32,000 nt of DNA from Nostoc punctiforme PCC 73102 (lineage in GTDB: Bacteria; Cyanobacteriota; Cyanobacteriia; Cyanobacteriales; Nostocaceae), in the NCBI RefSeq assembly GCF_000020025.1, contig NC_010631.1, positions 210,001 to 242,000 of the forward strand, in the 5' to 3' direction. The notes beneath the pieces were generated by a model that was not told where the DNA came from, did no database searches, and saw nothing but the letters and a program-made list of their open reading frames with translations. The translations under genes were made by a program, and so were the position numbers. Of the stretch, positions 9,502 to 25,350 are shown one piece after another (position 1 is the stretch's first letter; the number at the start of each line of letters is the position of its first letter).

Positions 9502-10677
9502 ATGTTCTACCGTCTCAAATTTTTCACCGTTGTAACTTTAGTGTTTTCATTGACATACACCGTCGGTGCTGCTCAATCAAGGACAGGGGAAATTGTGCAA
9601 GTACCTCCGAAAGCAGAGACGCAAACCACGCAACCTGGCACAGAAGGGCTGGTGCATCTATTGCAATTAGGCGAATACCAGTTAAATAAAAATCAGTTTC
9701 AAGAAGCTTTAGGGACATTTCAAGCAGTTTTAACTATTGTCAGACTTATAAAAGAACGCCAACTCGAAGCGAGAACTCTCCACAATATTGGGGTAGTATA
9801 CCGTGAAATGAAAAACTACCCTCAAGCTTTAGAGTATTATCAACAAGCTTTAGCTGTTCGCATAGATGTCGGCAATCGCCGTGGGCAAGGCATAACTCTT
9901 AATGATATTGGCTTAGTCTACGATAACCAAAAACAATATACCAAAGCACTGGAGTTTTATCAGCAAGCTTTAGCTATTCATAAAGAAGTTAGCAACAAGG
10001 CAGACGAGGGAACAACTCTCAACAATATCGGGGTAGTATACCGTAAAATGAAAAACTACCCTCAAGCTTTAGAGTATTATCAACAAGCTTTAGCTGTTCG
10101 CATAGATATAGGTGATCGTCGCGGACAAGGTATAACTCTTAATGATATTGGCTTAGTTTACTACAACCAACAAGAATATCCCAAAGCCTTAAATTATTAT
10201 CAGCAAGCTTTAGCTATTCATAAAGAAGTTAGCAACAAGATAGATGAAGGGACAACACTTGATAATATTGGTTTAGTTTACGTTAAGCAAATTGATTTAG
10301 TTTCTGATAAACAAAAAGATTATACTAAAGCCTTAAATTATTATCAGCAAGCTTTAGCTATTCATAAAGAAGCTAGCAACAAGGCAGACGAGGGAACAAC
10401 TCTCAACAATATCGGGGTAGTATACCGTAAAATGAAAAACTACCCTCAAGCTTTAGAGTATTATCAACAAGCTTTAGCTGTTCGCGTAGATATAGGTGAT
10501 CGTCGCGGACAAGGTATAACTCTTAATGATATTGGCTTAGTTTACTACAACCAACAAGAATATCCCAAAGCCTTAGATTATTATCAGCAAGCTTTAGCTA
10601 TTCATAAAGAAGTTGCTAAGGCATCATGTAAAAATAACTTGAACAATTTGCTGAATGGTAAGATGATCAGAATGTAA
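9502..10677 (+). pseudogene. 5' fragment (signal peptide + TPR array) of a TPR-CHAT gene interrupted by an IS
   Basis: ATG 9502 follows AGAGGA. The N-terminus MFYRLKFFTVVTLVFSLTYTVGAAQ is signal-peptide-like. About seven 40-aa TPR units follow (YPQALEYYQQALAV...G.TLNDIGLVY). Native coding ends at 10619. The last 19 codons and the stop come from the IS end. Confidence 0.85.
9958..10614 (+). repeat. Near-perfect 273-bp direct repeat within the TPR array
   Basis: 9958-10230 versus 10342-10614 (offset 384 bp) differ at 3 positions by direct comparison. Older, more diverged units lie upstream. Confidence 0.9.
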
Positions 10678-11952
10678 CCGAATTAAAGGCTTATATGTCT
10701 GATAAGCAGGTAGTAGAAAGCATTCAAGACAAGTACGATTCGTTATCGCCTTATTTGAATGAGAAAACACGGCGTATTTGGGCAGCAATTGAAGCCCGAA
10801 GCCTGGGCTGGGGAGGCGTGAGTCAGGTTGCGCTCGCAACTGGACTATCCCGGACTACAATCCATGCTGGGATACGGTTATTGTTAGACGCTTCGGGGGA
10901 AAAAACCTCGAATGATGATAGTAATCGAATTCGTTCGTCAGGTGCTGGACGTAAACTACTTGAAGAAAAAGACGCAATGCTGCTATCAGATTTAGAATCG
11001 CTGATTGAACCAGTGACACTGGGAGACCCAGAATCTCCTCTAAAATGGACTTCTAAAAGTGTTGTGAAACTGGCTGCGGCATTAAACATTGGGGGACATA
11101 GGACTAGTCCTAAAAGTGTTTATAACTTACTTGAATCGCTTGGCTACAGCTTACAATCAAATCGTAAAACCCGTGATGGCTCATCTCATCCAGATAGAGA
11201 TGATCAGTTTTTACATATTTCCAACCAAGTCTTGCACTTTCAATCCCAGAACGAACCCGTAATTTCAGTTGATACAAAAAAAAAGAATTAATTGGAGATT
11301 TTAAAAATTCTGGAACCGAGTGGTGTGAAAAGGAACAGCCAATTGAGGTGAAAATGCATGATTTTGTTGACCCCAAGTTGGGCAAGGCAATTCCCTACGG
11401 AATTTATGACTTAACCTCAAATCAAGGATGGGTAAATGTTGGCATTGACCACGATACCGCAGAGTTTGCAGTCGAGTCTATTCGTCATTGGTGGTACTCA
11501 ATGGGTAAACAAGTTTATCCCAGCAGTGAGCATATAATGATTACGGCTGATTGCGGTGGTAGCAATAGTTATCGCTCACGATTGTGGAAATTGAAGTTAC
11601 AAGAATTAGCAACTGATACTGGTAAAACTATTCATGTGTGTCATTTTCCTCCAGGCACAAGTAAATGGAATAAGATTGAGCATCGCTTGTTTTGTCACAT
11701 TACCCAAAACTGGCGAGGCAGACCATTAACTAGCTTGCAAGTTGTGATTAATCTAATTCGCAATACTACCACCACACAAGGATTAGAAGTTGAAGCTAGA
11801 TTAGATCCAAATCTCTACAAAACGGGAATCAAGGTTACAGACCAAGAGCTTGATACTATCGCAATCGAACGAAATTCTTTTCATGGTGAGTGGAACTATA
11901 TTATCAAACCCAAAGTAGTCAGTTAATTGTTCAATTTATTTTTACATAACTC
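10620..11952 (+). mobile_element. ISAzo13-family insertion sequence (1333 bp) with 4-bp target duplication CTAA
   Basis: Terminal inverted repeats GGCATCATGTAAAAATAACTTGAACAA (left) and the reverse complement of TTGTTCAATTTATTTTTACATAACTC (right). CTAA lies at 10616-10619 and 11953-11956. Removing the IS plus one CTAA restores GAA GTT GCT AAC AAG GCA GAC GAG (EVANKADE), which matches the neighbouring TPR units (EVSNKADE). Confidence 0.85.
10695..11926 (+). CDS. ISAzo13-family DDE transposase, in two frames joined at an A9G tract (-1 frameshift or 1-nt deletion)
   Basis: ORF 10695-11291 and the frame of 11348-11926 (open from 11285) join as ...SVDTKKK/ELIGDFKNSGTEW... Family hallmarks are present: GDPESPLKWTSKS, GYSLQSNRKT, GKAIPYGIYD, DHDTAEFAV, ADCGGSNSYRSRLWK, PPGTSKWNKIEHRLF, FHGEWNY. 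Confidence 0.8.
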
Positions 11953-11956
11953 CTAA

Positions 11957-14390
11957 CAAGGCAGACGAGGGAACAACTCTCAACAATATTGCAGAACTTT
12001 ATAAAAACAAGTATGAGTATACCAACGCTTTAAAGTTTTATCAACAAGCCTTAGTAATTCGCCAACAAACTAACGATAAGTATGGGCAATGGACAACTCT
12101 TGACAATATTGGAGAAGTTTACAACCAATTGGGACAGTATGGTAAAGCTTTAGATTACTATAAACAAGCTTTAGAGATTGTCAAATACATCAGTTATGAA
12201 AAACAGCGTAAGGTTGCAGAATTATTGACTCGTGGACAGATTGCTACAGTTTACCAAAATCTGGGTCAAGATTCAAAACTTTCGGAATTTACTGAGATGA
12301 TAGCAAATATTAGCAAAGATAAAAACTCCTCTAAAGAAAATATTTTGTTTCAGTATGCTTTAGCAATTGCTAGAGAAGTTGAAGAACCTGGTAAAAGAGA
12401 AAATTCCAATAAAATTGAGGGATTTGCCGACTATTTGACTAAACGATTAGAGTCTGATCAACGATATCTAGTCGAAGTAAGAAAAAATGGTAACCCGGGC
12501 CTTGTGGATAAAATAACACTCCAAAATCCAGAAATAGATTACACAAATTTGGGGGTAATGTATAGCGCTTCTAAACAGTACGCCAAAGCGTTGGAGTTTT
12601 ATCAACAAGCTTTAGCCGCCTACACACGCACTAAAGAAAAGGTAGAGCAAGCAACAATTCTTAACTATATAGGGGTAGTTTATTACAACCAAGGACAATA
12701 CTCTAAAGCATTGGAGCTATTTTGGCAAGCAGTAACTCTTCGTCAAGAAATCAACGATAAAGCAGGAGAAGGACAAACTCTTTATAATATTGGAACAACC
12801 TACAACGCTTTGGGCCAATATACTAATGCTGAAAAAGCTCTATTTAATGCCATCAAGTTTTTAGAATATCTGCGAACAGGATTAACTGATGAGCAGAAAA
12901 TATCAATTTTTGAAACGCAAATTAAGACATATCGAAGATTACAACAAGTTTTGATTACTCAAAATAAAAATGACCTGGCGTTGGAAATTGCAGAAGGTGG
13001 TAGGGCAAGAGCCTTTATAGAATTATTAACCTCGAAAATATCACCTAACCTGAACAATAAAATTAATATAAAATCACCAAATATTGAGCAAATTAAGCAA
13101 GTAGCAAAACAACAAAATGCCACACTTGTTGAATATTCAATTAATGAAACTCAGCTATATATATGGGTCGTGAAAGCCACTGGTGAAGTTACTTTCCGCA
13201 AAGCTGACCTCAAACTCCTGTTGCAGCAACAAAACATCTCCTTAATAGATAAAGTCGCCCAGGCTCGTCAGTCAATTTTTAAAGGTATGAATCTTGCCAG
13301 TCGTGGTAATAAAATCATCTTTGCCCCTGGCGATCGCGTTAAACTCAATGATGATGCTCCAGACTGGGAAGCTTGGCAAGTAGTTTCTGTAGATGTTAAA
13401 AACGGCAAAACTACTATCCGCTTACCCTCTTGGGAGGCAGAAAAACCAGCAATAGAACGTCCAATAATAGATGTTGTCGAAAAGGTGACAAACAGCCCTA
13501 GAGCAAATGCTAAAAACACCCAATTACAAGAACTTTATCAGCTACTGATCCAACCAATTGCAGACTTACTGCCAAAAGAAGAAACAGCCCGCGTCATCTT
13601 CATTCCCCAAAACGCTTTATTTCTCGTACCCTTCCCAGCATTACAAGACCCATCAGGAGAATATTTAATCGATAAACACACTATCCTCACCGCTCCCTCA
13701 ATTCAAGTATTAGATTCTACTCATAAGCTCCGACAAAAAGTTCCAGGTTTAGCTAAAGATATCTTGGTAGTTGGTAATCCTACAATGCCCAAAGTTTCAA
13801 AAAAACCTGGAGAACCACTTAAGCAGTTAAGTGCGCTTCCTGGTTCACAGAAAGAAGCTCTTGCAATTGCTTCCTTCTGGAAAACTCAAGCTTTGATTGG
13901 TAATCAAGCTACAAAAAAAGCAGTGTTGCAAAAACTACCACTAGCTAAAATCATTCATTTAGCAACTCATGGCTTATTGGATGATATTCAGGGATTGGGA
14001 AGTTCTATCGTCTTTGCTCCTGAAGGAAAGGATAACGGTTTGTTGACAGCAGAAGATATCCTAAATTTGTATGCACAACCACAAGGTTCTACCTTAAGTG
14101 CCGAATTAGTCGTATTAAGTGCTTGCGATACTGGGCAGGGGAGGCTAACAGGTGATGGGGTAATTGGGTTATCTCGCTCCATAATTGCCGCAGGGGTTCC
14201 TAGTGTGATAGTTTCTCTGTGGTCGATACCAGATGCACCCACTGCTGAATTAATGACAGAATTTTATGAAAATTTCCGCAAAAATCCTGACAAAGCTACT
14301 GCTTTGCGGCAAGCGATGCTGATGACGAAGAAAAAACATCCCAATCCTGCTGAATGGGCAGCTTTTACTCTGATTGGAGAGTCTGAATAA
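11957..14390 (+). pseudogene. 3' fragment (TPR units + CHAT protease domain) of the IS-interrupted TPR-CHAT gene
   Basis: In frame with the 5' fragment once the IS is removed; the reconstructed product is 1183 aa. CHAT hallmarks are GRARAFIELL, His in IIHLATHG (13968-13970) and Cys in VVLSACDTG (14124-14126). The first in-frame start after the IS is TTG 12129. Confidence 0.85.
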
Positions 14391-14407
14391 CTCAAGTTTG
14401 CTTACCA
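13326..14407 (+). repeat. Highly similar paralogous segment A (3' part of the CHAT gene plus ~17 nt past the stop)
   Basis: Aligns with 20362-21446 (offset 7036-7039). It includes a 102-nt run with no mismatch (14221-14322 versus 21260-21361). Similarity decays sharply upstream of 13326. Confidence 0.85.
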
Positions 14408-14729
14408 TACTATTTAATGTAAGCAATTCCGAAGATTAAAAAGCTAATAAAGTTTTGCTCTAAAGGGGTTTGGTTGGAGACAGATTTTATAAATATTTAT
14501 TTTTTTGCTCAAAGGATAAAAAAGCTATCAAAAATTCCCTCAAATTGACAATATTTTCTGGAATCCGCTTCGATAAATTTGTATCTTAAAATAGATAGTA
14601 AATAATATTACTTAGCTTATCGCGCTCTTTATTTTCGGCTGGAGTTTCCAGTGTTATGGTTCTTTATGGGATATATCGAATCAAGAATTTTGATTGGTGT
14701 GTTGTAGTTCCAGATTAGGTTTGGAAATT

Positions 14730-17700
14730 ATGGGCGATCGCGCAAGCAGAATCATTTTAATTGCTTTGAGTGCTTTTCTGGTAACGATTGCACCTACATT
14801 CCCGCAGAATTTTTCCGGGATTTTCTTTGCACCACAGGTGTTAGCACAAACACCAAATCAGCCAAACCCGCATAAAAACCCTGCGTTGGCTGTCACAGGG
14901 AGTTTTATTGATTACTTTGCAGAAGAGAGACAATTAAAAGGGCATGAGGGTAGCGTCAACAGCGCTAGCTTTAGTCCAGATGATAAGTTAATTGTGACAG
15001 CTGGTGCAGATAACACCGCCCGTGTCTGGGATTTTTCAGGCAAACAGCTAGTGGAGTTAATTGGGCATCAAAGCAATGTTTATAGTGCGAATTTTAGCCC
15101 CGATGGTAAGCTGATTGTCACTGCCTCTTTTGATGGTACTGCCCGTATTTGGGATATTTCGGGCAAACAGCTAGTTGAGCTAAAAGGACACCAAGGTAAT
15201 GTTTATAGTGCGAATTTTAGCTCAGATGGTAAATGGATAATCACGGCAAGTGCAGATAAAACTGCCCGTATTTGGGATATTTCTGGTCAGCAAATAGCGC
15301 AAATTACAGGGCATGAAAACATTGTTACCAGTGCGAATTTTAGCTCAGATGGTAAACGGATAATTACGGCAAGTGCAGATAAAACTGCCTGTATGTGGGA
15401 TTTATCAGGTAAGCTATTGGTGCAGTTGAAAGGGCATACAGATACGGTATGGAGTGCGAATTTTAGCCCCGATGGTCAGAGGATAGTTACAGCATCTGAT
15501 GATAAAACGGCGCGAGTGTGGGATTTATCTGGCAAGGTGCTAGCAGAGTTAAAGGGACATGGTGATAGCGTATACAGTGCTAGCTTTAGTCCAGATGGCA
15601 AGTTGATTGTGACAGCTTCTATTGATAGAACTGCGCGAGTATGGGATGCTACAGGAAAAGTAATAGGTAAACTGGAAGGGCATCAGGGAAGTGTAAACAA
15701 CGCAAAGTTTAGCTTTGATGGAACCCAGATTGTCACTGCATCATCTGATGGTTCCATCCTTATATGGAACACTTCTAAGAAGATATTTATCGAACTATTA
15801 GGGCATCTCGGTGAGGTTTTCAGTGCCAGTTTTAGCCCAGATGGTAAGCAGATTATCACTACATCAAAAGATGGCACAGTTAGGATATGGAACACTTTAA
15901 ACAAGCAGATAACTGAAATTAAAGCACAGGTTGCTGTCCAAAGCGCAAATTTTAGCCCCAATGGGAAGCTAATTGTCACCACATCTTCAGAGAAATTTGC
16001 TCAAGTGTGGGATACCTCAGGTAAAATTTTAACGGAACTTAAAGGACATGAGAGTCGTGTAAATAGTGCAACTTTTAGTCCTGATGGTAAGTTCATTGTC
16101 ACCGCATCTGACGATACAACAGCACGAATATGGGATATTTCTGGTAAGCTGCTAACTGAACTAAAAGCAGATCACGGTAGGGTTGTTAGTGCTAATTTTA
16201 GTTATGATGGCAAACAGATTATCACTGGATCGGGCAATACAGCCTTTATATGGAATACATCAGGCAAGCTGATAAGTAAATTAGAATTAAAAGGACCCCA
16301 GTACTCTGTTATCAGCGCCAATTTTAGCCGCGATCGCCAGTTAATTGTCACTGCATCTCATGATGGCAGTGCTTGGATATGGGATTCTTCCGGTAAAGTA
16401 ATAACAAAAATAGAGTTTCCGAATAACATAACTGAAAACTATAGCGAAAATCGTGTTTACGGCGCTGATTTCACTCCAGATGGTAAATATTTAGTAACGG
16501 TAACTTCCGATGGAGGTAGAGTCTGGGATATCTCCGGTAAGCTAATAGCTGAATTCAAAGGACATCAGGATGAAGTCATCAATTTTAGTTTAAGTCCAGA
16601 TGGTAAGCAGATGCTCACGGCATCTGATGATAGAACTGTACGAGTGTGGGATATTTCCAATAAGTCACTGGCTCAAATAAATTCGTCACAAATACCTTCT
16701 ACGAATAATCAGACTAAACTGCAATACAAAGATGAAGATAAAAGTATTACCAGTCTTGCTTTTAGTCCTGATAATCAATTCTTTGTCACTGGCTCTAAAA
16801 GTGGTAATGTGAAAATTTGGGATACCTCAGGCAAACTCCTAAATGAACTAAGAGGACATGAATATCAAATAAATGGTATAAACTTTAGCTCTGATGGCAA
16901 ATCTATTCTTACTGTATCTTTGGATTTTGCAAGAGTTTGGAGTAACTCTGGGAAATTGCTAGCAGAAATTAAAGGCAAACAGAAGCATGACGCTGCTTTA
17001 ACAAGTGCAAGCTTGAGTCCAGATGGCAAGTTGATTGTTACCGGATATTCAAGTTTTCAACAAAATGCTTATTTGTGGGATAGTTCTGGGAAGCAGCAGA
17101 TGGAACTTCAAGGGCATCAAAACTTTGTTAATAGTGTAAATTTTAGTCCAGATGGCAAGTTGATTGTTACAGCATCGGATGACGAAACTGCCTGTATTTG
17201 GGATACGACTGGTAAGCTGCTAAACGAATTGAAAGGAAATTCCAGTAAAGTAAAAAGCGCTAGTTTTAGTCCTGATGGTAAAAAAATTATTACTACATCG
17301 AGCGATGGTACTGCTATTATTTGGGATACTTTTGGTAAGCTGCTTGCCAAGTTTAATATAGGTTTCCCAATTAGTAGTTATAGCTCAACTAGGGTGAATT
17401 TTAGCCCTGATGGTAGGTTCATTATTGCTCAAATTGAGGGTGGTTTCACTCGTTTGTGGGGTGCAGATGGCACTGTGATTTCCACAGATGAGAGTTTAGG
17501 AAATATCACTTTTAGTCCTGATGGTAAGTTAATTGCCATTGTACGTAGAGGTGGTAGCGCTTCTGTGGGGATTCCTGAGGAAAAAAAACTAGCAATACTT
17601 CAGATAGAGCCTTATCTTGTGCAGAGAGTCATTTTTAGCCATAACAGTAAGTTTTTCGTCACAATATCTGAAATTCCTTTCTCCTCTGTCGATAAAATCC

Positions 17701-17750
17701 AAGTATGGGATGTTGGTAAGCTTGACTGGATGACAGAAACATCAAAATAG
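14730..17750 (+). CDS. WD40-repeat protein, ~22 blades, with N-terminal signal peptide/anchor
   Basis: ATG 14730 (the ORF is open from TTG 14694). N-terminus MGDRASRIILIALSAFLVTIAPTF...APQVLAQTP. It is followed by 22 units of about 41 aa of the form GH...V.SANFSPDGK.IVTAS.D.TARIWD.SGK...ELK, counted through the FSPDG-like cores. Confidence 0.9.
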   Translation: MGDRASRIILIALSAFLVTIAPTFPQNFSGIFFAPQVLAQTPNQPNPHKNPALAVTGSFIDYFAEERQLKGHEGSVNSASFSPDDKLIVTAGADNTARVWDFSGKQLVELIGHQSNVYSANFSPDGKLIVTASFDGTARIWDISGKQLVELKGHQGNVYSANFSSDGKWIITASADKTARIWDISGQQIAQITGHENIVTSANFSSDGKRIITASADKTACMWDLSGKLLVQLKGHTDTVWSANFSPDGQRIVTASDDKTARVWDLSGKVLAELKGHGDSVYSASFSPDGKLIVTASIDRTARVWDATGKVIGKLEGHQGSVNNAKFSFDGTQIVTASSDGSILIWNTSKKIFIELLGHLGEVFSASFSPDGKQIITTSKDGTVRIWNTLNKQITEIKAQVAVQSANFSPNGKLIVTTSSEKFAQVWDTSGKILTELKGHESRVNSATFSPDGKFIVTASDDTTARIWDISGKLLTELKADHGRVVSANFSYDGKQIITGSGNTAFIWNTSGKLISKLELKGPQYSVISANFSRDRQLIVTASHDGSAWIWDSSGKVITKIEFPNNITENYSENRVYGADFTPDGKYLVTVTSDGGRVWDISGKLIAEFKGHQDEVINFSLSPDGKQMLTASDDRTVRVWDISNKSLAQINSSQIPSTNNQTKLQYKDEDKSITSLAFSPDNQFFVTGSKSGNVKIWDTSGKLLNELRGHEYQINGINFSSDGKSILTVSLDFARVWSNSGKLLAEIKGKQKHDAALTSASLSPDGKLIVTGYSSFQQNAYLWDSSGKQQMELQGHQNFVNSVNFSPDGKLIVTASDDETACIWDTTGKLLNELKGNSSKVKSASFSPDGKKIITTSSDGTAIIWDTFGKLLAKFNIGFPISSYSSTRVNFSPDGRFIIAQIEGGFTRLWGADGTVISTDESLGNITFSPDGKLIAIVRRGGSASVGIPEEKKLAILQIEPYLVQRVIFSHNSKFFVTISEIPFSSVDKIQVWDVGKLDWMTETSK

Positions 17751-17862: not shown

Positions 17863-17907
17863 CTTTTCCTCATTGCCCTTTCCCTCTTCCCTTTCACATG
17901 ATTCATC
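17863..17907. repeat. Purine/pyrimidine-rich repeat family, copy 2 (inverted orientation)
   Basis: CTTTTCCTCATTGCCCTTTCCCTCTTCCCTTTCACATGATTCATC. Its reverse complement resembles the left arm of the 31543-31634 copy (GGGGATTCATGTTAAAGGGGAAAGGGATGA). Confidence 0.4.
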
Positions 17908-17916
17908 TTTAAAATT

Positions 17917-20900
17917 ATGACTTTCACTAAGTTTGCATGTGGGTGCATATTGTTGTTAATATCGGCTTGTTTATTTATCCCCAATCGCCAACTAATTGTC
18001 ACCGCGTCCACTATTTTTAAAGATATTGCTCAAGCGTCAGGTGCTTCAAAATATTCACCTATTGAACTTAACCCCTACGCAAGTACAGTTGAAAATGCCA
18101 GTTTTAGCCCTGATGGAAGGTTTATTATCACTGGATTTGATAATGGAACTGCCCGTATTTGGGATAAAAGTGGTAATCTAATCACTGAATTAAAAGCGGG
18201 AGAAAATAAAGTAAAAAGTGCCTTTTTTAGTCCTAACAGTAAGTTTATTGTCACCTCATCTAACCGCACAAAAATATGGGACACTTCAGGAAAAAAACTA
18301 GTGGAATTAAAAGGGTATAATCCAAGTATTAGTCCTGATTGCAAGTTTATTGTTACAACCTTTTTGGGCGCTACGCTATGGGATACATCGGGTAAACTGC
18401 TAGTGGAATTTAAAGAGGATAAAGATAATCCTGTTATGAGTGCTAGCTTTAGCCCTGATAGTAAACTAATTATCACGGCATTACGTAATGGTATTGTACG
18501 TGTGTGGGATACAAATGGTAAACTCATAACTGAATTTACAGCTGATCGCAATCTTCTCAAAAGTGCTGTTTTTAGTCCAAATGGTAAGCTAATTTTCACT
18601 ACTTCTTTTGGTACTTCTAGAGTATGGGATATTTTAGGTAAGCTGCTAGCAGAACTCAAAGGTCGCCATCTATCGATTCAAAGTGCCAATTTTAGTCCTG
18701 ATAGTAAGCTGATTGTCACCACATCTTTAAATAATAGTGACTTTTTTAATAGGAATGCCCAAGTGTGGGATACATCAGGTAAAGAAATAGCTGAACTTAA
18801 AGGACATGAAGGGGATGTTACAGGGGCGAACTTTAGCCCTGATGGAAAGCGCATAGTCACTGTTTCTAATGATGGGACTGCCCGGATATGGGATACAAAT
18901 GGTAAAATGCTGCTTACCTTGAAAGGACATCAGGGAAATGTTAGCAAAGCTAGTTTTAGCCCTGATGGACAACTTGTAATTACCGCTTCTGATGATGGTA
19001 CGTCACGGTTGTGGGATGCAAATGCCAAACAATTAGCTACACTAAATCTGGGTGAAAAAATTGCTATTTCCCCGAAAGCTGAAGCCGATCGTCTCCGTGA
19101 TCTACAATTCTACTCCCCTAACTGCGCTCTAGCATTCGACCCCTGGCAAAAAGCTCTAAAACTTTACCAACAAATCTCCGATAAGGAAAACCAAGCTGTT
19201 ATCCTAGAAAAACTTGGCAACGCTCACTACTGCATTGGTTATTATACCAGCGCGATTCAAAGTTATACTCAAGCAACTGCCATTGCCCAGAAATTCAATT
19301 ACCCACAACTCCAAGCCAACAATCTTTCCAATCTCGGCAATGTTTATAACACCCTAGCTGACTATGAAACTGCAATTAATAAATATAACGAAGCCTTAAA
19401 GCTCCTCCCCAAAGATAACTCCCCAAGCAAAGCCAAGATTCTTCAAGGACGAGGAAATAGTTACAATTCTCAAAGTAAATATCGTGAAGCTATTCAAGAT
19501 TACTTGCAAGCATTAGCTATCGATGAAGTAATTAAAAATACCTCTGGCGTAGCTGAAAATAAAGTCAATTTGGCAAGTATTTATCTGGCTTCTGGAGATA
19601 CCAATAAAGCAACTCAATATTATAAAGAAGCATTAGATATCAAGCCGATGGAAGCACTATCTGGTTTGGGAAATGTTTACTGGACGCTTGGTGAAATCAA
19701 TAAAGCCATTGACTTATATCAGCAGAGTTTAGCTAAAGCACAGCAACAAGAAAATAAAGAAGGTGAAGGAAATGCACTCAATAGCTTAGGATTTACTCTG
19801 TATAAATCAGATAGACTCACTGAAGCAGAACAATATTTGCGTCCAGCGATCGCTATTTGGGAAAATCTCCGCATAGTATTAGACGATGGCAATAAAATTT
19901 CCATCTTTGAAAAACAAACTCGTACCTATCGTCTGTTACAAGAAGTGTTGATTGCTCAAAATAAAATAACTGAAGCCTTGGAAGTATCTGAAAGTGGTAG
20001 GGCAAGAGCTTTTATTGAATTATTAAGTAAACGATTATCTCCTAATCAAACAGAGCAATTAAAAGTTCCTGTATTGAATACTGAACAGATGAAACAAGTT
20101 GCTAAAAATGAAAATGCAACCCTGGTTCAATATTCGATTATTACTGATGAATTTAAAGTTGGCGGTAAACTGCAAACTCAAGATTCAGAACTATATATTT
20201 GGGTAATCAAACCTACAGGTGAGATTAAATTTTATCCAATTGACCTCAAACCCCTATGGCAGCAACAAAATACCTCCCTAAGAAATAAAGTTGACCAAAC
20301 CCGTCAGTCGATTGTTAAAGATGTGAGCCTTACTAGTCGTAGTAATAACATCACTCTCACACCAGGAGATCGCGTTAAACTCAATGACGATGAGCCAGAC
20401 TGGGAAGCTTGGCAAGTAGTATCAGTTGATATTAAAAACGGTAAAATCACTATTCGCTTGCCCTCTTGGGAGGCAGAAAAACCAGCAATAGAACGTCCAA
20501 TAATAGATGTAGTGAAAAAAATCGGTATAAATAGTTTTGTTGCAAACGCCAAAAACTTACAGTTACAGGAACTTTACCAGCTACTTATCCAACCAATTGC
20601 AGACATACTGCCAAAAGAAGAAACAGCTCGTGTCATCTTCATCCCCCAAGATGCTTTATTTTTAGTTCCTTTCCCAGCATTGCAAGATTCATCGGGGCAA
20701 TACTTAATTGATAAACATACTATCCTTACCGCCCCTTCCATTCAAATATTAGAATCTACTCATAAACTACGGCAAAAAGTTCCAGGTTCAGCCAAAGATA
20801 TTTTGATAGTCGGTAATCCCACAATGCCCAAGGTTTCAAAAAACCCTAGAGAATCACCTCAGCAATTAGGTGCGCTTCCTGGTTCAGAAAAAGAAGCTCT

Positions 20901-21429
20901 TGCAATTGCTTCATTTTGGAAAACTCAAGCTTTGATTGGTAATCAAGCTACTAAAAAAGCAGTGTTGCAAAAACTACCACTAGCTAAAATCATTCATTTG
21001 GCAACTCATGGCTTGTTGGATGATATTCGAGGATTGGGAAGTTCTATTGTCTTTGCTCCCGAAGGACAGGATAACGGTTTGTTGACAGCAGAAGACATCC
21101 TAAAATTGTACACAGCACTCCAAGGTTCTACCTTAAGTGCCGAATTAGTCGTATTAAGTGCTTGCGATACGGGACAGGGTAGGCTGACAGGTGATGGGGT
21201 AATTGGGTTATCTCGTTCCATAATTGCCGCAGGGGTTCCCAGTGTTATAGTTTCCTTGTGGTCGATACCAGATGCACCCACTGCTGAATTAATGACAGAA
21301 TTTTATGAAAATTTCCGCAAAAATCCTGACAAAGCTACTGCTTTGCGGCAAGCGATGCTGACGACGAAGAAAAAACATCCCAATCCTGTTGAATGGGCAG
21401 CTTTTACTCTGATTGGAGAATCTGAGTAA
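17917..21429 (+). CDS. WD40 (8 blades) + TPR + CHAT caspase-like protease, lipoprotein-type signal
   Basis: 1170 aa. N-terminus MTFTKFACGCILLLISACLF (ISAC fits a lipobox). It has 8 FSPDG-type WD40 units, then TPR units (aa ~400-650), then a CHAT domain with GRARAFIELL, His in IIHLATHG (21007-21009) and Cys in VVLSACDTG (21163-21165). Confidence 0.9.
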   Translation: MTFTKFACGCILLLISACLFIPNRQLIVTASTIFKDIAQASGASKYSPIELNPYASTVENASFSPDGRFIITGFDNGTARIWDKSGNLITELKAGENKVKSAFFSPNSKFIVTSSNRTKIWDTSGKKLVELKGYNPSISPDCKFIVTTFLGATLWDTSGKLLVEFKEDKDNPVMSASFSPDSKLIITALRNGIVRVWDTNGKLITEFTADRNLLKSAVFSPNGKLIFTTSFGTSRVWDILGKLLAELKGRHLSIQSANFSPDSKLIVTTSLNNSDFFNRNAQVWDTSGKEIAELKGHEGDVTGANFSPDGKRIVTVSNDGTARIWDTNGKMLLTLKGHQGNVSKASFSPDGQLVITASDDGTSRLWDANAKQLATLNLGEKIAISPKAEADRLRDLQFYSPNCALAFDPWQKALKLYQQISDKENQAVILEKLGNAHYCIGYYTSAIQSYTQATAIAQKFNYPQLQANNLSNLGNVYNTLADYETAINKYNEALKLLPKDNSPSKAKILQGRGNSYNSQSKYREAIQDYLQALAIDEVIKNTSGVAENKVNLASIYLASGDTNKATQYYKEALDIKPMEALSGLGNVYWTLGEINKAIDLYQQSLAKAQQQENKEGEGNALNSLGFTLYKSDRLTEAEQYLRPAIAIWENLRIVLDDGNKISIFEKQTRTYRLLQEVLIAQNKITEALEVSESGRARAFIELLSKRLSPNQTEQLKVPVLNTEQMKQVAKNENATLVQYSIITDEFKVGGKLQTQDSELYIWVIKPTGEIKFYPIDLKPLWQQQNTSLRNKVDQTRQSIVKDVSLTSRSNNITLTPGDRVKLNDDEPDWEAWQVVSVDIKNGKITIRLPSWEAEKPAIERPIIDVVKKIGINSFVANAKNLQLQELYQLLIQPIADILPKEETARVIFIPQDALFLVPFPALQDSSGQYLIDKHTILTAPSIQILESTHKLRQKVPGSAKDILIVGNPTMPKVSKNPRESPQQLGALPGSEKEALAIASFWKTQALIGNQATKKAVLQKLPLAKIIHLATHGLLDDIRGLGSSIVFAPEGQDNGLLTAEDILKLYTALQGSTLSAELVVLSACDTGQGRLTGDGVIGLSRSIIAAGVPSVIVSLWSIPDAPTAELMTEFYENFRKNPDKATALRQAMLTTKKKHPNPVEWAAFTLIGESE

Positions 21430-21446
21430 CTCAAGTTTAGTTACCA
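20362..21446 (+). repeat. Highly similar paralogous segment B (partner of 13326-14407)
   Basis: See segment A. The proteins are nearly identical from PGDRVKLNDD to the C-terminal FTLIGESE. Confidence 0.85.
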
Positions 21447-21468
21447 ATAAATCGCTAAGGAGTGTGAA

Positions 21469-21843
21469 ATGCCAGAAGAAAATTCTATCGGATTAGCAGA
21501 ATTGATTGAGCAGATAAAGCAAGAATTGCTTTCAACAGAGGTAGAAGGAGAAAAACCCATACCCTTGTTTAGTGTTGACCAAGTGAGTTTGGAATTGCAA
21601 GTGACAGCACGTAAAGAGGGGAAAGCTGGAATCAAAGTCTACGTTGTGGAATTAGGTGGTGGAGGCAGCCGTGATGATGTACAAAAAGTTACTGTCACCT
21701 TAACCCCTTTATTGAGTAAAGAAGAGCGAATTGCGCTTTATAAAACACGCTATCCCCAAAAGTGGAAGTTGCTGGAAGAAACTAGTATAGAAGGATTGCT
21801 GAAGGGCAGCAATGACGAACCTCTTGGCGACCTCTTAGGCTAA
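21469..21843 (+). CDS. trypco2-like small protein (trypsin/caspase co-occurring domain 2)
   Basis: 124 aa, with RBS AAGGAG 8 nt before the ATG. The core IGLAELIEQIKQEL...PLFSVDQVSLELQVTARKEGKAGIKVYVVELGGGGSRDDVQKVTVTLTPL matches my recollection of the trypco2 pattern (helix, then two beta hairpins ending ...h.V.L.L.P). It starts 39 bp after the upstream CHAT gene and ends 16 bp before the next one. Confidence 0.65.
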   Translation: MPEENSIGLAELIEQIKQELLSTEVEGEKPIPLFSVDQVSLELQVTARKEGKAGIKVYVVELGGGGSRDDVQKVTVTLTPLLSKEERIALYKTRYPQKWKLLEETSIEGLLKGSNDEPLGDLLG

Positions 21844-21859
21844 ATAGCAAGGATGGCTA

Positions 21860-24433
21860 ATGGAGCTATTAAAGGTATACCTATCTCCCATTAATGAGGC
21901 TGATTTCAAAGTCAGCGTCAATGGGTTACGAGTTGGTCAAGCGGAAGCCAACTCAACATTACCTTTTTGGCAAGACGGAATAAACTTGCTGATTACCGTT
22001 ATTAAATCTCTAGAAGCTATTCGTTTTCGACCAGAGGACTTTCAGCGCTCTGGGGAACAAGATTGGATGGTGCAAGTTGGTCTACTAGTTCAAGACCGAA
22101 AAGCCTTTCATCCCTATTTTTTAACAAACATTGGCAAGGCACTGTATCAATCACTTTTTCCCCCAGGCTCTAAAGTCGAAAAAATGCTGCAAAATGCGAT
22201 TAATTTAGCCCAAAATAACGGAACTCAACTGCATATACAACTAGAAATAGCGGCAGATATCTTAGGCTCAACTCGTTTACCTGATTATCCTTGGGAATTA
22301 ATGCATGATGACCGAGGGTTTTTGACTCAACATCAAGTTACCTTCTCTCGTTACATTACCTATGATGCTGCACCGCCGAAGCTACCATCGATGGAGCAAG
22401 TTAACGTTTTGTTAATATCCTCTGCGGCTTCTGACCCAGAAAATGCTTTGGAAAAGCTGCCACAGCAAGAACAACTTGCAGTACGCAGAGGTTTAGGAAT
22501 AGCCGAGAAAGAAGGTCATATTCGGCTAGTTGAACTGAAACCCCCGACTTTAAAAGCTTTGCGGGATTATCTGACTGAACATCGGAATGAGACAGCACCT
22601 CATGTTATCCATTTTGATGGACATGGCTTGTTTGGTAAATGCTGTAACAATACATTGGACAATGGTCAGCTATGTCGAACTATACATAAAGGTATAAAAA
22701 TAAACAACTGTCAACGTTGCTATGCCTTACTTCCTGAACCGCAAGGATATCTAGTTTTTGAAGATGAAACTGGCAAACCAAATTATGTGAGTGCTAAGGA
22801 AATTGGTATACTGCTACAGCAAAATAGTTTTACTGATAATTCTAAACAGCTACGTGGTGTAGCTTTAGTGGTATTGAGCGCCTGTCAATCTGGTTTGGCG
22901 TTAACTGGAACTTCAGTGTTTAATGGTGTAGCTCAAAGCTTAATTGCTCACCGCACTCCAGCAGTGGTAGCGATGCAGTATTCTGTGAGTGTGCCAGGTG
23001 CAACAGCTTTTAGTGAGCAATTTTATCGTTCACTTGGTCAAAAAGACCCCTTGGCAATGGCAGTGAGTCAAAGCCGAGAAGCAATGGGTACAGAAGGCAA
23101 GCAGTGGTATCGTCCAGTACTTTATCTGCGCTGGCAAGATAACGAAGGCGGTCAACTCTTTGCAGCACCGACTTCAGTTATTCCTACACCAATTAAATTA
23201 AAACCCTCTGTTTTTGTTCCATCTGCAAGTTTAGTCATAACAGCTTTGGTGTTTGGAGTACGACTGCTAGGAATACTGCAATCATCAGAGCTAAAGATAT
23301 TTGACCAGATGATGCGACTGCGCCCAGATGAGGGAATAGACCCTCGAATTTTGGTTGTTACTATTGATGATGAAGATTTAAAATATCAAAATTCTAAGGG
23401 AATGAAAGGCCGTGGATCATTATCCGACATTGCACTACATAAACTTTTAGAGAAACTACAACCCAATCAACCAAGAGTAATTGGCTTAGATATCATTCGT
23501 GATTTTCCTGTTAGCAACGACCAGCCAGAATTAGCAAATAAATTACAAAATAATGATAATTTTATTGCCATCTGCATAGGTAACGACCTCACAACTGGGG
23601 ATAAAGGTATTGAACCTCCACCAGAAGTTCCAACAGAGCGTTTAGGTTTTGCTGATGTGGTTATAGACGATGATAAAATTCTCCGTCGGTATCTGTGGAA
23701 TGCAAATTTTAACAGTAAAACTGCTTGTGAAACAGAAGATCCTTTAAGCCTTAAGCTTGCACTATATTACTTAGCTAAAAAAGGTATTAAACCTGAAACC
23801 ACGCATTCGATAGATTTATTATTAGGGAAAACTCGCTTACAACGTTTACAGGCAAGAGCAGGAGGCTACCAAAATTTAGACAATGATGGCTACCAAATGC
23901 TACTTAATTATCGCTCTCGAAATATTGCCAGACAAGTTTCCCTAAGAAATATCCTAGAAAATAGTTTTGACCCTTCCTGGGTGAAAGACCGAATAGTTAT
24001 CATTGGCGTTACTGCTAGAAGTGTAAAAGATAATTTTTATACCCCATACAGTCTTAACGAACAGTCAGACCAAATAATGCGGGGTGTATTTGTTCAAGCC
24101 CAAATGGTAAGTCAAATTACTAGTGCGGCATTAGATGGTCGTCCTCTGCTGGGAGTACTGCCTTGGTGGGGAGATGTTTTTTACATCTGGCTATGGTCTT
24201 TAGCTGGAGGTGTGTTTGGCACAGTTGTGTTGCAGAGACTTGCTTGGCGCGATCGCAAAATAATTCTTGTGATTACAAGCATAGGTATTATTTTTGTTAT
24301 CTCCTATAGCATCTGCCTTTTTCTTTTAATTCATGGCCACTGGCTACCATTCCTTCCTTCTACCATAGCTTTCCTTACTACAGGTGTAATTACGTTTAGC
24401 TATATCCACCAATTACCGTATAAACGCTGTTAA
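21860..24433 (+). CDS. CHAT protease fused to a transmembrane CHASE2 sensor module
   Basis: 857 aa. CHAT His in VIHFDGHG (22622-22624) and Cys in VVLSACQSG (22883-22885). One TM span lies at ~23222-23278. A CHASE2-like segment follows (SELKIFDQMMRLRPDEGIDPRILVVTIDDEDL ... RIVIIGVTARSVKDNFYTPY). Three C-terminal TM spans lie at 24164-24406. No other output domain is present. Confidence 0.85.
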   Translation: MELLKVYLSPINEADFKVSVNGLRVGQAEANSTLPFWQDGINLLITVIKSLEAIRFRPEDFQRSGEQDWMVQVGLLVQDRKAFHPYFLTNIGKALYQSLFPPGSKVEKMLQNAINLAQNNGTQLHIQLEIAADILGSTRLPDYPWELMHDDRGFLTQHQVTFSRYITYDAAPPKLPSMEQVNVLLISSAASDPENALEKLPQQEQLAVRRGLGIAEKEGHIRLVELKPPTLKALRDYLTEHRNETAPHVIHFDGHGLFGKCCNNTLDNGQLCRTIHKGIKINNCQRCYALLPEPQGYLVFEDETGKPNYVSAKEIGILLQQNSFTDNSKQLRGVALVVLSACQSGLALTGTSVFNGVAQSLIAHRTPAVVAMQYSVSVPGATAFSEQFYRSLGQKDPLAMAVSQSREAMGTEGKQWYRPVLYLRWQDNEGGQLFAAPTSVIPTPIKLKPSVFVPSASLVITALVFGVRLLGILQSSELKIFDQMMRLRPDEGIDPRILVVTIDDEDLKYQNSKGMKGRGSLSDIALHKLLEKLQPNQPRVIGLDIIRDFPVSNDQPELANKLQNNDNFIAICIGNDLTTGDKGIEPPPEVPTERLGFADVVIDDDKILRRYLWNANFNSKTACETEDPLSLKLALYYLAKKGIKPETTHSIDLLLGKTRLQRLQARAGGYQNLDNDGYQMLLNYRSRNIARQVSLRNILENSFDPSWVKDRIVIIGVTARSVKDNFYTPYSLNEQSDQIMRGVFVQAQMVSQITSAALDGRPLLGVLPWWGDVFYIWLWSLAGGVFGTVVLQRLAWRDRKIILVITSIGIIFVISYSICLFLLIHGHWLPFLPSTIAFLTTGVITFSYIHQLPYKRC

Positions 24434-24495
24434 GAAGACAGAGAGTATGTCTGTCGTCGTTTTGTAGAGATATTTATTCCATACTTCTATAAAAA

Positions 24496-25350
24496 ATGAT
24501 AAAGTTACTTTTTCGACATTTGAGTTTAGCTTTAATTTTTCCCTTAACATTAGGTGTTTATTCTCTTGTTAAAGCAGCCCCACGCTCTAATTATGTTTGG
24601 GAAGATGGGGTTACTTTAAAGCAGCAACAAAGACAACAGCCTCAAACCCCAAAACCTACAAATACGCCTAAAACTTCAGGACTAATTTCCCAGATTATTC
24701 ACTTTTTATTACCCTCAAAAGGCGCGCCTGGTCAGCGAAGCTATGCTGCGGCAAGAGCGGATTGTCCAGCTATTGAAAAACCTCTGACGGCTTTAGTTCC
24801 AAATACAAACATTGGATTAACTATTTCCGAACGTCCGACATTCTGGTTTTATATTCCTTACCAGCCTACAGACACAAATCCAGTTGAATTTTTGCTAATA
24901 AATGATAAAAATAATCCGGTTTATAAAACTACTTTTCAGTTAACAAATATACCAGGGATTATTAGTGTCAACTTACCTCAAAATATACCAGCATTAGAAA
25001 TTGGTAAAAAATATAATTGGGTCTTATCTTATATGTGCGATCCAGCAAATCGCCTGAAGGATCCTTTTGTTAAAGGATATATTGAGCGAGTTTCTATCAA
25101 CTCTAATTTGAAAAATGATTTAGAGAAAGCAAGTAGACCGAGAGAGCGCATTTTGCTGTTCGCTGAAAATGGTCTTTGGTATGATGCTCTGACGATCCTG
25201 GCTAACGAACGCCGTCAAAAACCCAAGGATGCACAGGTAACAAAAGATTGGAAAGATTTATTACTGTCCTCAGAAGGGGACTTAACAGAGATTAAAGAGA
25301 TTGTTTCAGAACCTATTGTCTCTTGCTGCCAAAATATTGTAACTCAATAG
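24496..25350 (+). CDS. DUF928 domain-containing secreted protein
   Basis: 284 aa. Signal peptide MIKLLFRHLSLALIFPLTLGVYSLVKA. A Gln/Pro-rich linker precedes a core with ERPTFWFYIPY...VEFLL...YKTTFQL...PGIISV.LP...LEIGKKYNW, as I recall for DUF928. It starts 62 bp after the CHAT-CHASE2 gene. Confidence 0.7.
   Translation: MIKLLFRHLSLALIFPLTLGVYSLVKAAPRSNYVWEDGVTLKQQQRQQPQTPKPTNTPKTSGLISQIIHFLLPSKGAPGQRSYAAARADCPAIEKPLTALVPNTNIGLTISERPTFWFYIPYQPTDTNPVEFLLINDKNNPVYKTTFQLTNIPGIISVNLPQNIPALEIGKKYNWVLSYMCDPANRLKDPFVKGYIERVSINSNLKNDLEKASRPRERILLFAENGLWYDALTILANERRQKPKDAQVTKDWKDLLLSSEGDLTEIKEIVSEPIVSCCQNIVTQ

Follow-up and report, generated by a model that had tools for sequence, protein, structure and literature searches.

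A Nostoc punctiforme plasmid locus as a candidate envelope-sensing variant of a protease-plus-pore death module

How might a caspase-like protease be put to use when it is fused to a membrane-embedded CHASE2 domain that faces the periplasm? This question is raised by a locus on a 354-kb plasmid of Nostoc punctiforme PCC 73102, part of which, a stretch of 32,000 nt, was analyzed here and is referred to as the window. Pepco and other pore toxins that are activated by proteases now count among the major forms of bacterial immunity. To our knowledge, the natural ligands of CHASE2 have remained largely unknown since the domain was described in 2003.

Gene content of the locus

An earlier note, made from the sequence alone, had listed the domains, coordinates, intergenic gaps and catalytic motifs of a six-gene cluster. 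Pfam profile searches and a sequence check found all of them in place. What could be observed directly were the domains present, the intact catalytic residues, the topology and the conserved gene linkage; the features are as follows.

9502..10619 (ORF 9496-10677), forward strand: 5' part of an IS-split signal-peptide TPR-CHAT gene; Pfam TPR, signal-like N-terminus
10620..11952, forward strand: IS of 1333 bp, ISAZ013-type DDE transposase, 36-nt inverted repeats
10695-11926, forward strand: transposase ORF, ISAZ013-type DDE by Pfam, transposase split over two frames
10616-10619 and 11953-11956: CTAA target duplication flanking the IS
11957..14390 (ORF 12129-14390), forward strand: 3' part of the IS-split TPR-CHAT gene; TPR and CHAT (2e-69), LATHG / LSACDTG dyad intact
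14730..17750 (Pfam ORF 14694-17750), forward strand: WD40 protein with signal peptide and about 22 blades by motif count; Pfam WD40 3e-186
17917..21429, forward strand: WD40 (about 8 blades)-TPR-CHAT protease, 1170 aa; Pfam CHAT 4.5e-70, lipobox-like N-terminus LLISAC
21469..21843, forward strand: Pepco/Trypco2, 124 aa, cytoplasmic, predicted latent pore-forming effector; Pfam Trypco2 1e-18
21860..24433, forward strand: CHAT-CHASE2, 857 aa; Pfam CHAT at aa 92-410 (1.6e-21) and CHASE2 at aa 460-784 (6e-67)
21860-23164, forward strand: cytoplasmic caspase-like cassette, aa 1-435, N-terminal to TM1
22622-22624, forward strand: H255 of the CHAT cassette, invariant
22883-22885, forward strand: C342 of the CHAT cassette, invariant
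C262/C272/C284/C287 of CHAT-CHASE2, forward strand: Cys4 insert of the CHAT cassette
About aa 447-475 of CHAT-CHASE2, forward strand: TM1, by hydropathy
23237-24211, forward strand: periplasmic CHASE2 domain, aa 460-784; Pfam PF05226, 226 bits
24496..25350, forward strand: DUF928, 284 aa, secreted (signal peptide); Pfam PF06051 1e-63, 214.7 bits (cut-off 26)

The start positions given in the earlier note, 9502 and 14730, each mark the first ATG of a listed ORF, the two ORFs beginning at 9496 and 14694. The gaps of 39, 16 and 62 nt between the genes at 17917-21429, 21469-21843, 21860-24433 and 24496-25350 are exact, with the Pepco gene lying 16 nt upstream of the CHAT-CHASE2 gene on the same strand. 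This spacing, together with its conservation, suggests co-transcription; a weak hairpin lies between the CHAT-CHASE2 and DUF928 genes. IS elements flank the plasmid-borne locus, which is absent from related Nostoc plasmids that have the adjacent DUF5674 backbone in common. The cluster was noted previously in N. punctiforme, in descriptive terms and as five genes (PMC5587647). PADLOC, which includes models for neither Pepco nor DUF928, returned a weak SAVED_CHAT match alone at the locus.

The first TPR-CHAT gene is indeed IS-split, as had been proposed: removal of the 1333-bp element in silico yielded an uninterrupted 1185-aa TPR-CHAT ORF. Over its last 1.2 kb this gene shares 88% DNA identity with the WD40-TPR-CHAT gene (13205-14407 compared with 20241-21446), and it appears to be a recent paralogue of the gene at 17917-21429. 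All three CHAT (PF12770) matches in the window (2e-69, 4.5e-70, and 1.6e-21) have intact His-Cys dyads, in line with the earlier view that they look catalytically competent. LATHG / LSACDTG of the exported CHATs align with catalytic H862/C907 of DdvA, a periplasmic TPR-CHAT protein of solved structure (PMC11506125), and H255 and C342 of the CHASE2-fused cassette are invariant in 80/80 homologous cassettes. Hydropathy identified signal-like N-terminal segments in the three repeat proteins and in DUF928, as expected from the export signals that the earlier note had assigned to the repeat-array proteases.

By hydropathy, the CHAT-CHASE2 protein has one transmembrane segment before CHASE2 and three C-terminal ones after it. 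Its output domain sits N-terminal; CHASE2 proteins usually have a C-terminal cyclase or kinase output, a placement that is typical and not defining. The cassette is 52-59% identical to homologues fused to NB-ARC, NACHT, GUN4 and EAD domains, and is a swappable N-terminal module, usually carried on STAND NTPases and here on CHASE2. Because of this identity to NB-ARC- and NACHT-fused cassettes, CHASE2 appears to take the place of the NTPase as sensor. The absence of an NTPase had been pointed out before, and a profile search found no NTPase family among the window ORFs scanned; the locus is nevertheless not detached from NTPase systems, given the shared cassette. A Walker-A motif (GxxxxGK[ST]) was not found in the CHAT-CHASE2 protein, and about 20 paralogous cassettes have one at about aa 475-480.

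The small gene upstream provides the candidate effector. Its product scores 67.6 bits on the Trypco2 (PF19631) profile, for which the cut-off is 24.2 (E = 1e-18), with all 78 positions of the profile covered (1-78), and NCBI names it a trypco2 family protein. The statement that the locus holds no obvious toxin effector has to be withdrawn, as Trypco2 is Pepco (Trypco1/2), established by experiment as a protease-activated pore toxin; the tested member is serine-protease-linked, and activation was demonstrated with a trypsin-like partner only (bioRxiv 10.1101/2025.11.14.688446). The same study found the family accompanying proteases of the Ser or Cys type that are joined to a variety of sensors, with a high prevalence in cyanobacteria. 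Pepco is described as an SDS-resistant barrel of 9-10 subunits that turns toxic once the tail is removed. By analogy, the window protein is predicted to be a latent pore-forming effector, with pore activity taken from that homologue in the literature. Hydropathy found neither a signal peptide nor a transmembrane segment in it, and the CHAT cassette precedes TM1, so both should be cytoplasmic.

Family members are characterized by an amphipathic helix at the N-terminus, beta-strands from which the barrel is built, and an unstructured C-terminal tail that is charged or contains proline. An AF2 monomer of the window Pepco (pLDDT 63, low confidence) has a helix at 9-21, strands at 39-49, 55-59 and 71-78, helices at 84-111 and a disordered tail at 113-124. 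Amphipathicity of the N-terminal helix is moderate (hydrophobic moment 0.46-0.50) and not significant compared with shuffles. The C-terminal tail is 12 aa long, with three charged residues and one Pro. Across 38 CHAT-linked Pepco homologues, K112 is invariant and is followed by a variable acidic tail, and position 106 (I/V/F) is partly conserved. Serine-protease-linked Pepco proteins are described as having a conserved P1 isoleucine at the activating cleavage site (bioRxiv 10.1101/2025.11.14.688446), for which the alignment of these 38 homologues gave no clear counterpart in the window protein.

DUF928 was modeled by AF2 (pLDDT 78.6) as a signal peptide, a disordered P/Q-rich linker, an Ig-like beta-sandwich (97-198) and a five-helix bundle (203-269). 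Alignment identified a conserved GAPGxRxGAxxRxxCP motif in the linker and conserved C90 and C181. Fold comparison returned generic Ig-like matches only, with no functional clue.

Linkage across genomes and metagenomes

The cassette census comprised 80 genome loci, 79 with cyanobacterial labels. A Pepco homologue lay directly upstream of the CHAT cassette, on the same strand and at 4-45 nt, in 72 of the 76 testable loci, and this pairing held alike for NB-ARC/NACHT, short C-terminal domain and CHASE2 fusions. DUF928 was directly downstream of the CHASE2-fused cassette in 12/12 genomes, compared with 0/71 other copies (Fisher p = 1e-14); a 4-nt overlap of the CHASE2 and DUF928 genes is frequent in these Pepco-type loci. 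An exported (signal-peptide) TPR-CHAT adjoined 11/12 CHASE2-type loci as against 6/71 other loci, with a Fisher p of 2e-7 computed on an earlier count of 10/12. Every exported CHAT partner has a signal-like N-terminus, and POTRA domains of the ShlB type, a domain typically found in the periplasm, are present in most of them. Hydropathy and POTRA domains together point to export of the TPR-CHAT partners, and the thylakoid lumen may be an alternative to the periplasm for the signal-bearing proteins.

As the gene order recurs in 12 genomes, the clustering is far beyond chance, and Trypco2, CHAT-CHASE2 and DUF928 show conserved linkage, not a peculiarity of one genome. As a set, the six genes are not a single conserved unit. 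Among the CHASE2 loci, the 22-blade WD40 gene and the WD40 head of the protein at 17917-21429 are confined to PCC 73102, and no WD40 homologues were found in the others. The 22-blade gene appears to be a strain-specific accessory outside the conserved core, and the protein at 17917-21429 appears to stand in for the POTRA-TPR-CHAT partner of other genomes. We regard the WD40 genes and the IS-split paralogue as local additions to the exported-protease arm. Four genes make up the conserved core, encoding Pepco/Trypco2, CHAT-CHASE2, DUF928 and an exported TPR-CHAT protease.

In metagenomes, 56 of the 69 DUF928 loci that could be tested had a CHASE2 gene immediately upstream of DUF928, usually within a related DUF1822/CHAT-CHASE2/DUF928/TPR-CHAT/TPS system. 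Loci of this DUF1822 type form a class separate from the Pepco type and are more common; their CHAT-CHASE2 genes are followed by DUF928 and usually then by an exported TPR-CHAT. A death cassette wired to an extracytoplasmic sensor is thus found at the window locus, in 11 counterpart genomes and in dozens of related DUF1822-type metagenomic loci.

Proposed signal path and alternatives

We propose, with a probability of roughly 0.6, that the locus is a protease-plus-pore death module of a known kind fitted with a new sensor, in which CHASE2, DUF928 and the exported TPR-CHAT sense, CHAT cleaves Pepco and the cell dies. Such a module probably lets the cell kill itself on a signal from outside the cytoplasm and not on one from an ATPase sensor inside the cell. 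A protease-plus-latent-pore pair would be formed by Pepco and the N-terminal CHAT cassette, and in most cyanobacteria this pair is mounted on a cytoplasmic STAND NTPase sensor; here membrane-embedded CHASE2, facing the periplasm, stands in place of that NTPase. CHASE2 would first detect an extracytoplasmic event in concert with the exported TPR-CHAT and with DUF928, a secreted and obligate partner, most economically through processing of DUF928 or of the CHASE2 ectodomain by the exported protease and a resulting change of receptor state. The signal would then cross the membrane and switch on the cytoplasmic CHAT, which would cut off the Pepco C-terminal tail at a putative cleavage site. Finally, the Pepco barrel would permeabilize the cytoplasmic membrane, and death would follow, as abortive infection or altruistically within a filament. 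The trigger could be phage or a non-viral signal. These results support the earlier suggestion of a conflict or cell-death type module spanning the envelope, and signal flow from periplasmic proteases and DUF928 through CHASE2, also put forward there, remains a hypothesis.

Alternatively, the locus could consist of two independent neighbors: a self-contained Pepco/CHAT-CHASE2/DUF928 set, and a TPR-CHAT/WD40 set for secretion or surface maturation, related to two-partner secretion, that does not signal to CHASE2. About 10 metagenomic loci are consistent with this, having an exported TPR-CHAT, DUF928 and TPS-domain proteins and no CHASE2 gene, as are locus L010, where a TPS protein and a ShlB transporter lie upstream of Pepco, the orientation of the partner exported-CHAT gene, which differs among genomes, and the strain specificity of the WD40 genes. 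We nevertheless consider it unlikely, given the enrichment of exported CHATs at CHASE2 cassettes (p = 2e-7 on the 10/12 count) and the persistence of this adjacency, rearrangements notwithstanding, in Nostocales, Coleofasciculales and Leptolyngbya-like lineages. DUF928, moreover, is common to both kinds of context and so links them.

It is also improbable, in our estimate, that the locus is a non-defense developmental or stress device, in which envelope or cell-cell cues act via CHASE2 to cause single-cell death (necridia, hormogonium release, fragmentation) or sub-lethal permeabilization. The hosts mostly carry labels of cyanobacterial genera that are filamentous in habit, which would suit such a role. 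PMC5587647 cites an acid stress response reported for a Synechocystis DUF928 protein, and Evans et al. note a possible use of protease-effector modules in stress responses of a general kind (bioRxiv 10.1101/2025.11.14.688446). Similarity of the CHASE2-fused cassette to HetF, a cell-division and differentiation protease, could be read the same way, but is weak at 40 bits against a cut-off of 1200. Further, the same cassette and Pepco occur on NB-ARC/NACHT STAND NTPases, for which links to phage sensing have been found repeatedly, and the plasmid-borne, IS-flanked, patchily distributed locus resembles a defense island.

Least probable is regulated proteolysis in place of ligand binding, with the exported CHAT cutting the CHASE2 ectodomain to free or dimerize the cytoplasmic CHAT and DUF928 as a protective cap or inhibitor: DdvA has a periplasmic TPR-CHAT that is proposed to act ahead of intramembrane proteolysis (PMC11506125), exported CHAT genes are conserved beside CHASE2, and DUF928 has an Ig-like and helical binding-type fold lacking a catalytic signature, but a profile search found no site-2 protease gene among the window ORFs scanned, and some DUF1822-type CHAT-CHASE2/DUF928 loci have no exported CHAT within 8 kb.

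Within the envelope-sensing death module that we prefer, it is possible, if short of probable, that DUF928 is a protein ligand or co-receptor of CHASE2, generated or released by the exported caspase-like protease, in a trans-envelope protease cascade akin in logic to Spaetzle processing ahead of Toll. Such a cascade would finish, without any NTPase, in the cutting of a pore-forming death effector by a caspase-like protease, and its sensor arm would drive at least two cytoplasmic outputs, Pepco or DUF1822. The census yields a testable candidate for a CHASE2 partner in secreted, Ig-like DUF928, which is encoded next after the CHASE2 genes of this clade in nearly all cases, along with the exported caspase-like protease. 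If true, the proposed module would show how bacteria sense attack or damage at the envelope and convert it to cell suicide, and would give roles to three uncharacterized families: DUF928, POTRA-TPR-CHAT and this CHASE2 clade.

Comparison with known systems

Type III-E CRISPR craspase (Csx29 TPR-CHAT) likewise has a TPR-CHAT protease that cleaves a dedicated neighboring substrate once activated, but its activation is RNA-guided and cytoplasmic. No Cas family, gRAMP/Cas7-11 included, was found by profile search among the window ORFs scanned, and we do not assign the locus to that system.

Closer in architecture are the EACC2-caspase systems (Kaur et al. 2021, PMC8195603), which have a constant N-terminal caspase-type module on transmembrane helices and an interchangeable CHASE2 sensor. 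Caspase-CHASE2 fusions, as one form of variable sensor and with DUF1822 or TRADD-N neighbors, were noted in that work, the main text of which mentions neither DUF928 nor an exported CHAT. Here, the CHAT cassette belongs to another subfamily and the upstream partner is Pepco, not DUF1822; profile search found no DUF1822, sigma factor (ECF included) or TRADD-N gene in the window, and membership was rejected.

The NTPase-centered conflict systems (Kaur et al. 2020, PMC7159879) share the protease cassette, at the 52-59% identity given above, and the Trypco2 partner. Their defining NTPase, STAND or vWA-MoxR, is missing among the window ORFs scanned, as is the GxxxxGK[ST] motif in CHAT-CHASE2, and a transmembrane sensor is present instead, which sets the locus outside this class.

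The DdvA anti-sigma factor of M. xanthus (PDB 8ROT; PMC11506125), the periplasmic TPR-CHAT of which controls a phage-defense island, resembles the exported arm in its periplasmic TPR-CHAT and aligned His/Cys dyad, and is a precedent for linking that arm to trans-envelope control of a phage-defense response. DdvA, however, combines its TPR-CHAT in one polypeptide with an anti-sigma domain that binds zinc and lies in the cytoplasm, and it has a transcription output via an ECF sigma factor. The exported CHATs here are separate proteins that have a signal-like N-terminus only, the predicted output is a cytoplasmic protease and a pore toxin, and there is no sigma factor gene in the window, so the locus was not classed as a DdvA-type anti-sigma system.

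The nearest counterparts are the Pepco-protease modules (Evans et al. 2025, bioRxiv 10.1101/2025.11.14.688446), the main text of which does not mention CHASE2. In the characterized example, phage portal protein is sensed in the cytoplasm by an Avs4 STAND NTPase that carries a trypsin-like protease, whereas the window locus has a CHAT protease, a periplasmic CHASE2, two conserved extracytoplasmic partners, no NTPase and a Pepco with no evident P1 isoleucine. Both have a small Trypco2-family gene immediately upstream of a sensor-fused protease, and the low-confidence model of the window protein resembles the family layout of helix, beta-strands and disordered C-terminal tail.

Gene content and plasmid setting

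By protein look-up, the products of the four genes at 17917-25350 are identical to ACC85032-ACC85035, from a plasmid record of 354,564 bp. Pfam recovered, in place, every domain that an earlier note on this DNA had named, and the spacing of 39, 16, and 62 nt that it gave between the last four genes is exact.

Features of the cluster (window positions; strand; content and basis)
9496-10677, +, TPR (Pfam)
10620-11952, IS element of 1333 bp (36-nt inverted repeats, CTAA target duplication)
10695-11926, +, ISAZ013-type DDE transposase (Pfam)
12129-14390, +, TPR and CHAT (Pfam)
14694-17750, +, WD40 array of ~22 blades (Pfam and repeat count)
17917-21429, +, ~8 WD40 blades, TPR, and CHAT (Pfam)
21469-21843, +, Trypco2 (Pfam, E = 1e-18)
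21860-24433, +, CHAT and CHASE2 (Pfam)
24496-25350, +, DUF928 (Pfam, E = 1e-63)

The first TPR-CHAT gene is indeed split by the IS, as excision in silico gives back an ORF for a 1185-aa signal-peptide TPR-CHAT protein. The IS transposase is spread over two reading frames, as ORFs at 10695-11291 and 11348-11926, and is either a decayed copy or subject to programmed frameshifting. Promoter and terminator scanning returned counts no higher than the shuffle expectation and was uninformative on operon structure. The 62-nt gap between the CHAT-CHASE2 and DUF928 genes contains a weak hairpin with T residues after it (24437-24455). Most orthologous loci have a 4-nt overlap of the two genes.

Downstream, the DUF5674 gene and the next ORF (25476-26355) are 88-97% identical to sequences on several other Nostoc and Aulosira plasmids without CHAT/CHASE2 genes, and in PLSDB, from which this plasmid is absent, matches to other Nostoc plasmids were limited to the DUF5674 backbone. 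Because plasmids without CHAT/CHASE2 genes share this backbone, the module appears to be a variable island beside it. A second set of transposase ORFs on the reverse strand at 27999-29432 (a 176-aa DDE_Tnp_1 fragment and a 274-aa DDE_5 ORF) means that the region is bracketed by mobile-element genes. Upstream, also on the reverse strand, positions 21-6109 carry plasmid- or phage-like genes for an HTH protein, a 2OG-Fe(II) oxygenase, a KilA-N/ANT antirepressor-like protein, and DUF1392, together with several ORFs without a family.

A CHAT cassette paired with Pepco

Hydropathy orders the CHAT-CHASE2 protein as a cytoplasmic CHAT module, one TM helix, an outward-facing CHASE2 domain, and three further TM helices. 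Signal-like N-terminal segments are present in all three repeat proteins and DUF928, and absent from Trypco2. The catalytic dyads are intact, as had been read from the sequence: those of the exported CHAT proteins align with catalytic H862/C907 of DdvA, a solved periplasmic TPR-CHAT protein, and all 80 of 80 homologues keep H255 and C342 of the CHASE2-fused CHAT. Between this His and Cys, residues C262, C272, C284, and C287 (22640-22723) are essentially invariant across all 80 Pepco-linked cassettes, a pattern suggestive of a zinc-binding knuckle set into the caspase fold; we know of no earlier account of it. Searches of solved structures by sequence and profile matched nothing meaningful to the cassette, and PADLOC, whose models cover neither Pepco nor DUF928, offered no more than a weak SAVED_CHAT match. 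NCBIfam yielded nothing beyond a sub-threshold similarity to HetF (40 bits, with the cut-off at 1200), and HetF orthology was rejected.

The earlier note saw no obvious toxin effector in the cluster, a view that has to be revised: Trypco2 here belongs to the Pepco family of protease-activated toxins. Trypco1/2 proteins, renamed Pepco, are small proteins pre-assembled as a 9-10-mer beta-barrel, which becomes a membrane-permeabilising toxin when a neighbouring protease removes the C-terminal tail; their partner proteases, of the serine or cysteine type, are reported to be joined to a range of sensors, and the family to be prevalent in cyanobacteria (Evans et al., bioRxiv 10.1101/2025.11.14.688446). 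In the predicted structure of the window protein, residues 9-21 form a helix, three strands are arranged about a GGGG turn, two helices follow, and residues 113-124 are a disordered tail. This layout is compatible with the description of Pepco; model confidence is modest, which is to be expected when an oligomeric barrel is modelled as a monomer. In an alignment, K112 is the invariant residue preceding the variable tail of CHAT-linked Pepco. The P1 isoleucine conserved in serine-protease-linked Pepco is not evident.

The first ~435 residues of the CHAT-CHASE2 protein form a cassette shared, at 52-59% identity, with very many cyanobacterial proteins, in which NB-ARC and TPR, NACHT, GUN4, effector-associated domains, or nothing comes after it. 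We scanned one genome per species with a full-length alignment and annotated six-frame ORFs, obtaining 80 loci; the scan anchored on the CHAT cassette, as the CHASE2 half alone has no stretch conserved enough. All labels were cyanobacterial or unassigned except that of L046, a Pepco-CHAT locus whose contig is binned as Acetobacteraceae, probably in error. Of the 76 loci with upstream DNA, 72 have a co-oriented Pepco gene directly 5' of the cassette, usually at a distance of 4-45 nt. In L064, Pepco's position ahead of the gene for a 2337-aa cassette protein is occupied by a HigB/HigA-like pair (8816-9539). Some 20 cassettes have a Walker A motif at aa 475-480, the mark of a STAND NTPase. CHASE2 was found in 9/80 loci; adding three loci from exact-protein look-up and the window, and subtracting one overlap, gives 12 genomes.

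Since Pepco and the cassette stay linked across varied C-termini, they form a constant protease-effector pair for which CHASE2 is one alternative sensor, replacing the NTPase. The earlier picture of an NTPase-free module thus stands for the window itself, where neither an NTPase nor a Cas family was detected among the ORFs scanned, and fails as a separation from NTPase systems, from which the cassette derives. The exported TPR-CHAT was rejected as Pepco's protease, as Pepco has no export signal and accompanies the cassette in 65 loci without any exported CHAT.

CHASE2-type loci and the broader DUF928 system

Linkage of Trypco2, CHAT-CHASE2, and DUF928, for which a neighbourhood census had been proposed, recurs in 12 genomes, labelled N. 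punctiforme, Nostoc CALU 546, Pelatocladus, Nostochopsis, Nostocales HT-58-2, Coleofasciculus, Stenomitos, Pseudanabaena, Tildeniella, Iphinoe, and two MAGs. DUF928 is immediately 3' of CHAT-CHASE2 in 12/12, often with a 4-nt overlap, and absent from 71/71 non-CHASE2 cassette loci (Fisher p = 1e-14). A large adjacent CHAT protease with a signal-like N-terminus accompanies 11/12 CHASE2-type genomes versus 6/71 other loci (Fisher p = 2e-7, from an earlier count of 10/12); at the twelfth, L010, the contig ends directly after DUF928. This exported partner has 1296-1418 aa with two or three POTRA domains (ShlB type included), TPR, and CHAT in most of these genomes and is a TPR-CHAT protein in the Nostoc-related lineage, with a WD40 head in place of POTRA in this strain.

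The six-gene cluster originally outlined therefore reduces to a conserved core of four, with the 22-blade WD40 gene and the IS-split TPR-CHAT gene as local parts. WD40 genes were rejected as core components because all other CHASE2 loci lack them, and the 22-blade gene has no counterpart there. The CHAT-domain ends at 13205-14407 and 20241-21446 share 88% DNA identity, pointing to recent duplication or gene conversion, and the N-terminal halves are unlike, one having TPR alone and the other WD40 and TPR; judged by sequence, the IS-split gene is a recent paralogue of the WD40-TPR-CHAT gene. Such local elaboration is in line with Hu et al. 2017 (PMC5587647), the only paper we found mentioning DUF928, in which the five-gene cluster was already noticed in one of seven genomes only.

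Directly 5' of Pepco, L010 carries a two-partner-secretion pair (3223-9399): an ShlB/POTRA_2 transporter and a TPS-domain protein of 820 aa, whose genes are separated by one for a gamma-glutamyltranspeptidase. The sensor arm is thereby connected with TPS secretion. That a secretion-related CHAT/TPS set is juxtaposed with the module and independent of it seems unlikely to us.

In the DUF928 model (AlphaFold pLDDT 78.6), a signal peptide leads into a disordered linker that is rich in P/Q and contains the conserved motif GAPGxRxGAxxRxxCP; an Ig-like beta-sandwich and a five-helix bundle come next. Two cysteines are conserved, and Foldseek returned generic Ig-like folds only. With DUF928 as anchor, a metagenome scan gave 80 loci. 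CHASE2 genes lie directly 5' of DUF928 in 56/69 testable loci, and DUF1822 lies 5' of the CHAT-CHASE2 gene in 19/37. Among the 46 loci with enough downstream DNA, 38 have a second CHAT gene and 16 a TPS-domain protein. The set of DUF1822, CHAT-CHASE2, DUF928, an ~880-aa TPR-CHAT, and a TPS-domain protein recurs in dozens of DUF928-anchored loci from metagenomes and genomes (L085, L087, L093-L167). Loci without CHASE2 are mostly DUF928, TPR-CHAT, and TPS, a set seen in ~10. Pepco was not found in the 80 loci, with the possible exception of L088, which is closely related (88% identity) and has a contig that begins within the CHAT gene. Loci of the Pepco type are thus the minority form of a wider cyanobacterial system made up of DUF1822, CHAT-CHASE2, DUF928, exported TPR-CHAT, and TPS. 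Kaur et al. 2021 (PMC8195603) described the caspase-CHASE2 fusion with a DUF1822 neighbour; neither DUF928 nor the exported protease appears in the main text of that paper.

Proposed mechanism and relation to known systems

The best-supported model, to which we give a probability of about 0.6, builds on the domains, topology, and gene linkage observed here and on the intact dyads. An extracytoplasmic cue would act on CHASE2, DUF928, and the exported CHAT, the cytoplasmic CHAT would thereby be activated and trim Pepco, and the Pepco pore would kill the cell. The activity of the window Pepco is taken by analogy from a serine-protease-linked homologue, and we infer the transmembrane step, the trigger, and the role of DUF928, which may be ligand, co-receptor, or cap. 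The same parts could serve a developmental or stress death device instead of immunity, which we hold to be improbable, to about the same degree as the independent secretion set. A regulated-proteolysis variant is less probable still. The earlier interpretation, a trans-envelope proteolytic signalling or cell-death module, is thus partly supported, with the toxin, the NTPase-system origin of the cassette, and the four-gene core as amendments, and the specific CHASE2-DUF928 hypothesis is now directly testable. DdvA of M. xanthus sets a precedent, as its periplasmic TPR-CHAT controls phage defence across the membrane. The module does not amount to a new category: protease-plus-pore modules are known, and this one is a variant with a new sensor.
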